Below, in pieces: positions 16,976 to 16,988 of a DNA stretch of 64,000 nucleotides. The position numbers and the translations under genes were made by a program. The number at the start of each line of letters is the position of its first letter. Position 1 is the first letter of the stretch. The notes under the pieces are model-generated. The model made no database searches. It saw only the letters and a program-made list of their open reading frames with translations, and was not told where the DNA came from. The DNA is taken from assembly GCF_024502345.1 (NCBI RefSeq), contig NZ_JALDNN010000001.1. The stretch is one strand, 5' to 3'. This stretch comes from Escherichia coli. Lineage in GTDB: Bacteria > Pseudomonadota > Gammaproteobacteria > Enterobacterales > Enterobacteriaceae.

Positions 16976-16988
16976 AATATGAAAGCAA
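16976..16988 (+). promoter_or_regulatory. Candidate Ada box in the alkA promoter
   Basis: AATatgaaaGCAA fits the AAT-N6-GCAA Ada-binding pattern, about 55 bp upstream of the alkA start. Confidence 0.5.

Follow-up and report, generated by a model that had tools for sequence, protein, structure and literature searches.

The 13 nucleotides AATATGAAAGCAA at positions 16976–16988 of the plus strand are the known, already characterised Ada operator of the Escherichia coli alkA promoter (numbering throughout is that of the window, the whole 64,000-nucleotide stretch of E. coli DNA that was analysed). Judged on sequence, we put the probability that this element would serve as the alkA operator by the textbook mechanism of the adaptive response at about 94%. 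Direct reading of the window gives the pattern AAT-N6-GCAA, composed of the Ada A box AAT (16976–16978; A box as defined in PMC4437013), the 6 nt spacer ATGAAA (16979–16984) and the Ada B box GCAA (16985–16988; B box as defined in PMC4437013 and PMC3788762), all on the plus strand. The site lies inside the 133 bp intergenic region between the divergent genes yegD and alkA, with 53 nt between the end of the B box (16988) and the alkA start codon (ATG, 17042). Table 7 of PMC6505713 gives this same 13-mer for alkA, divided into A box and B box by a 6 nt spacer, at an upstream distance of 53. The first-pass annotation had placed an Ada-box candidate at these coordinates, in the yegD-alkA divergent region and at the expected distance upstream of alkA; the boxes and spacer were read at exactly those positions, the distance is the published one and, with a sequence that matches the alkA Ada site already known, 'candidate' is too cautious a label.

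The regulated gene alkA is predicted to encode an intact protein of 282 amino acids (17042–17890, plus strand) and matches the NCBIfam equivalog NF007641 (DNA-3-methyladenine glycosylase 2) with an E-value of 4e-180 and 597.6 bits (cut-off 229), residues 1–281 aligning to 285 profile positions. On the opposite side yegD (15556–16908, minus strand; 450 amino acids) matches the YegD-type chaperone equivalog NF008673 (E-value 1e-243). A 251 bp query matched 5,411 of the 5,426 complete E. coli genomes in RefSeq at 95–100% identity, in every case with the annotation yegD/alkA; the region is therefore E. coli chromosome, and the yegD and alkA assignments are right. The gene downstream of the Ada site belongs to the Ada regulon, which comprises ada-alkB, alkA and aidB. 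The ada gene itself presumably lies, as on the K-12 map, about 160 kb from alkA and would fall outside the 64 kb window.

Positions 16900–17050 were aligned with the corresponding sequences of a K-12 MG1655 derivative, O157:H7, ETEC H10407, ABU 83972, BH100 and strain 503025. All seven E. coli sequences, the window included, share the 13-mer, and TATGCT (17011–17016) and AAGGAG (17031–17036) are likewise invariant. By comparison with K-12 the window has two single-base differences over 151 bp, neither of which touches the A or B box: T for A at 16912, adjoining the yegD start, and T for C at 16993, 5 nt downstream of the B box. Loss of the motif on alignment to the characterised promoter had been named in advance as the observation that would count against an Ada box; no loss was seen, and identity of the 13-mer to both the K-12 sequence and the published alkA site supports the reading of this element as an Ada box consistent with adaptive-response control.

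The motif by itself carries little information, as only seven bases of AAT-N6-GCAA are fixed. The window contains 13 copies, compared with 19.5 ± 4.6 expected from dinucleotide-preserving shuffles, so there is no enrichment in the 64 kb and the observed count falls below the shuffle mean. Perfect A and B boxes have also been found almost equally often upstream of genes with no MNNG response (PMC6505713). Given a frequency at chance level and copies upstream of unregulated genes, presence of the motif alone is weak evidence, without weight of its own, and identification must rest on position and conservation. A 13-mer one base off the alkA Ada box, AATATTAAAGCAA, is present on the minus strand at 54945–54957; it was rejected as an Ada site and attributed to chance, being antisense within a 394 amino acid open reading frame (54362–55546, plus strand).

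Conservation was assessed by a scan with the AlkA protein, one genome per species, which returned 53 loci with 64–98% protein identity from Escherichia, Citrobacter, Enterobacter, Klebsiella, Raoultella, Kosakonia, Phytobacter, Lelliottia, Yokenella and other genera; it also returned one distant homologue with 33% identity (L057). Usable upstream sequence was available for 52 loci from about 20 enterobacterial genera. AAT-N6-GCAA is kept in 49 of the 52, each with the 6 nt spacer length, and the three exceptions are the distant homologue and two loci whose B box reads GCAG. Relative to the ATG, the first base of the motif lies at −64 to −68 in 48 of the 52 loci and at −79 in one that has a 14 nt leader insertion. 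Both GCAG loci, from Intestinirhabdus alba (L022) and Phytobacter massiliensis (L044), are natural variants which could reveal how far Ada tolerates change at the last B-box base. One further locus, L055, is a 449 bp contig of very low coverage in a Firmicutes assembly labelled Terrisporobacter mayombei; it encodes AlkA residues 210–282 with 100% identity to the E. coli protein and almost certainly represents contaminating E. coli DNA.

Per-genus conservation was calculated as the majority-base frequency with one sequence per genus (n = 19). By this measure the A box scores 1.00, being invariant in all 19 representatives, the B box 0.97 and the 6 nt spacer 0.88; within the B box the G, C and first A are invariant and the last A is replaced by G in two of the 19 genera. 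The −10 hexamer TATGCT scores 0.96, whereas the 22 nt separating it from the B box score only 0.56 and the alkA leader 0.49. G16975, G16990 and C16991 are also kept among the 19 representatives, and the cross-genus alignment defines a full phylogenetic footprint, GAATATGAAAGCAAAGC, at 16975–16991 of the plus strand. The footprint sequence GAATaTgAAAGCAAnGC at these positions is near-invariant and unique in the window, and the extended conserved core GAATnTnAAAGCAAnGC likewise has a single occurrence in the 64 kb.

The distance from the B box to the −10 is a constant 22 nt while the surrounding DNA varies freely. In Yokenella regensburgei (L058) a 16 nt insertion separates the yegD-side block from the Ada box, and in Enterobacter sp. 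JUb54 (L042) a 14 nt insertion lies in the alkA leader; both leave the 22 nt spacing intact. As this gap survives insertions elsewhere, the Ada box and the −10 evolve as one module, and the two sides of the intergenic region as separate modules. The Ada box, the −10 and their spacing are under strong purifying selection.

These data also give the promoter its probable anatomy. The likely −10 hexamer of alkA is TATGCT at 17011–17016 (plus strand), near-invariant and always 22 nt past the B box, from which we infer a transcription start 6–8 nt further on, at 17022–17024 (plus strand). The Shine-Dalgarno sequence AAGGAG is read directly at 17031–17036 (plus strand), and a GGAG-type motif precedes the ATG in the aligned alkA loci. 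In a consensus scan of 16850–17100 no sigma-70 −35/−10 pair passed and no terminator was found. Taking TATGCT with a 17 nt spacer, the nominal −35 is AAGCGT at 16988–16993, which matches TTGACA at one of six positions and shares one base with the B box; counted from the predicted start, the Ada site would sit at about −47 to −35. The lack of a −35 consensus is as expected of an activator-dependent promoter and fits one in which the Ada site would abut the −35 position.

For the mechanism we rely on work with K-12, from which Ada binding, its contacts and the induction of alkA are all taken; the position of the site, its identity to the characterised operator and the purifying selection on box, −10 and spacing were established here. 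In each of the ada, alkA and aidB promoters an A box (AAT) is paired with a B box (GCAA) (PMC4437013, PMC3788762). In the Ada-DNA structure (He et al. 2005, reviewed in PMC4437013) R45 and R71 touch the A box, and F114, H115 and R118 touch the B box. Ada becomes able to bind specific sequences when methylation takes away negative charge at Cys38 (PMC4437013, PMC3788762). RNA polymerase alone binds very weakly at alkA, where binding of the alpha subunit needs Ada; alkA transcription is stimulated by methylated and unmethylated Ada alike, and the mode of action of Ada at alkA is unlike that at ada and aidB (PMC4437013). PMC7051996 makes no statement on the alkA promoter. Induction of alkA by MNNG was measured at +2.72 log2 (PMC6505713).

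Applied to the window, Ada would take a methyl group from a DNA methylphosphotriester onto its own Cys38, whereupon the methylated N-terminal domain would gain sequence-specific binding to AAT and GCAA placed 6 nt apart. Ada bound at about −47 to −35 would then replace a recognisable −35 element and recruit RNA polymerase, itself a very weak binder at this promoter, with alkA (3-methyladenine DNA glycosylase II) expected to be induced about 10-fold. Landini and Busby (1999) reportedly traced the alkA contact to basic residues in region 4 of sigma-70; polymerase carrying sigma-S is reportedly not activated at alkA.

The base at 16993 (plus strand), T in the window and C in K-12, occupies position six of the nominal −35 hexamer and also falls within an older definition of the Ada box. 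That consensus, AAANNAAAGCGCA (Teo et al. 1986 and later, cited in PMC3788762 and PMC6505713), is also given as AAANNAA/AAAGCGCA (PMC6505713, PMC3788762). Positions 16982–16994 match AAANNAAAGCGCA at 12 of 13 positions, the mismatch being T for C at 16993, and the same T changes AAAGCGCA to AAAGCGTA at 16988–16995, so that a full match to AAAGCGCA failed. Allele frequencies were counted among complete E. coli genomes by megablast with 47-mer queries centred on 16993, which seed only on the matching allele. The window allele (T at 16993) was present in 2,812 genomes, the K-12 allele (C) in 1,518 and a third allele (T at 16993 with A at 16995) in 1,035, a total of 5,365 out of about 5,411 genomes that have the locus. 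T is therefore the majority state (about 3,850 versus about 1,520, or roughly 70:30) and the K-12 reference has the minority one. Among the 19 genera 16993 is C in nine, T in five, G in three and A in two, with C in other Escherichia lineages, T in E. albertii and both in Citrobacter; at 16989, 12 of the 19 have G instead of A.

Since 16993 and 16989 vary while AAT-N6-GCAA is kept, AAAGCGCA is not what selection keeps at alkA; the older consensus AAANNAAAGCGCA thus fails to describe what is under selection there, and on sequence grounds the 16993 data favour the revised definition by A and B boxes. The C/T polymorphism itself is probably neutral, given that T is the E. coli majority and that the position varies among genera, although its place in the nominal −35 means that it may still modestly alter expression, whether basal or induced.

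On the yegD side of the intergenic region, 16913–16971 is near-invariant over about 20 enterobacterial genera (0.91–0.98), on a par with the Ada box. The block holds a candidate yegD promoter on the minus strand, TTGTCG (16971–16966), 17 nt and TAAAGT (16948–16943), which matches 8 of 12 consensus positions and is below the scan threshold; the invariant leader CCCCTTCTTCACnGGCATGGGGA comes next, with a likely yegD Shine-Dalgarno sequence at its 3' end. A search for an Rfam family matching this yegD-side block gave no match, and the leader folds no better than its shuffles (z +0.79). The gene yegD is a validated target that RyhB activates at the translational level (PMC4666370); in a crude prediction, the RyhB-leader duplex did not surpass its controls, being equalled by 27% of shuffled sequences and 30% of 61-mers drawn at random from the genome, and its very large loops make this a weak test. 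There is no mention of yegD in the main text of two alkylation transcriptome papers, one on MNNG and one on MMS. The candidate yegD −35 (conserved CGACAA on the plus strand, 16966–16971) is 4 bp from the Ada A box and, with divergent promoters thus back to back, transcription of yegD could in principle be disturbed by Ada and by the polymerase alpha-CTD acting at alkA.

Three other explanations of the element at 16976–16988 have to be weighed against the operator reading. The pattern could be a low-information coincidence with no regulatory role, as might be argued from the 13 matches against 19.5 expected in the window and from the similar 13-mer at 54945, antisense inside an open reading frame. 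Coincidence would, however, have to account for an exact copy of the alkA 13-mer at the distance given in the literature, and for a box that is near-invariant and fixed in its spacing to the −10 over about 20 genera while the flanks diverge; the conservation data rule it out for practical purposes, and we regard the chance of its being right as vanishingly small. Alternatively, the true alkA site could be the older box AAANNAAAGCGCA/AAAGCGCA at 16982–16995, damaged to AAAGCGTA in this genome so that Ada control is weakened or lost. The older consensus is indeed published and the window does deviate from it at 16993, but this deviation is what the majority of E. coli genomes carry (2,812 and 1,035 versus 1,518), all four bases occur at 16993 across genera and 16989 is G in 12 of 19. 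Further, the Ada-DNA structure superseded the older box (PMC6505713) and the element at alkA is AAAGCAA rather than AAAGCGCA (PMC3788762). A damaged older box is in our judgement very unlikely.

It could also be proposed that the conserved block is mainly an UP-like element for the alpha-CTD, or part of the divergent yegD promoter, and not an Ada operator. The block is A/T-rich, the conserved CGACAA that would be the yegD −35 on the other strand is only 4 bp away, and the alpha-CTD is reportedly needed at alkA, according to the title of a reference cited in PMC8643705. Set against this, the insertion in Yokenella parts the box from the yegD-side block and keeps its spacing to the alkA −10; and as alpha binding at alkA needs Ada (PMC4437013), the two roles are compatible. 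An UP-like or yegD element in place of the operator is thus exceedingly improbable, and the reading of 16976–16988 as the Ada operator of alkA, which none of the observations contradicts, is the one that we retain.

As a more speculative extension of the operator reading, the base at 16993 may tune basal or Ada-induced alkA expression across lineages and, separately, Ada and polymerase at alkA may modulate yegD; we consider this proposal unlikely. If the tuning by 16993 were real, the adaptive response would vary in strength between natural E. coli lineages. As a textbook operator in its expected place, the site is of small value as a discovery. It does provide a calibration point, in that a motif of chance frequency was correctly identified once position and cross-species conservation were added, and the population and cross-genus data lend independent evolutionary support to AAT-N6-GCAA over AAAGCGCA at alkA.

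By comparison with known systems, the window shares with the K-12 alkA site its 13-mer, 53 nt distance, −10 TATGCT, leader and gene neighbours; all alkA promoter experiments used the K-12 promoter, from which the allele at 16993 in the window differs. The site in the E. coli ada promoter, AATTAAAGCGCAA, has an A box, 6 nt spacer and B box patterned as at alkA, although the sequence of its spacer is unlike that of alkA. According to the literature the sites at ada and aidB are further upstream of the −35 and contact RNA polymerase in another mode; the alkA box in the window, in contrast, ends 22 nt before the −10 and would thus overlap the −35 position.
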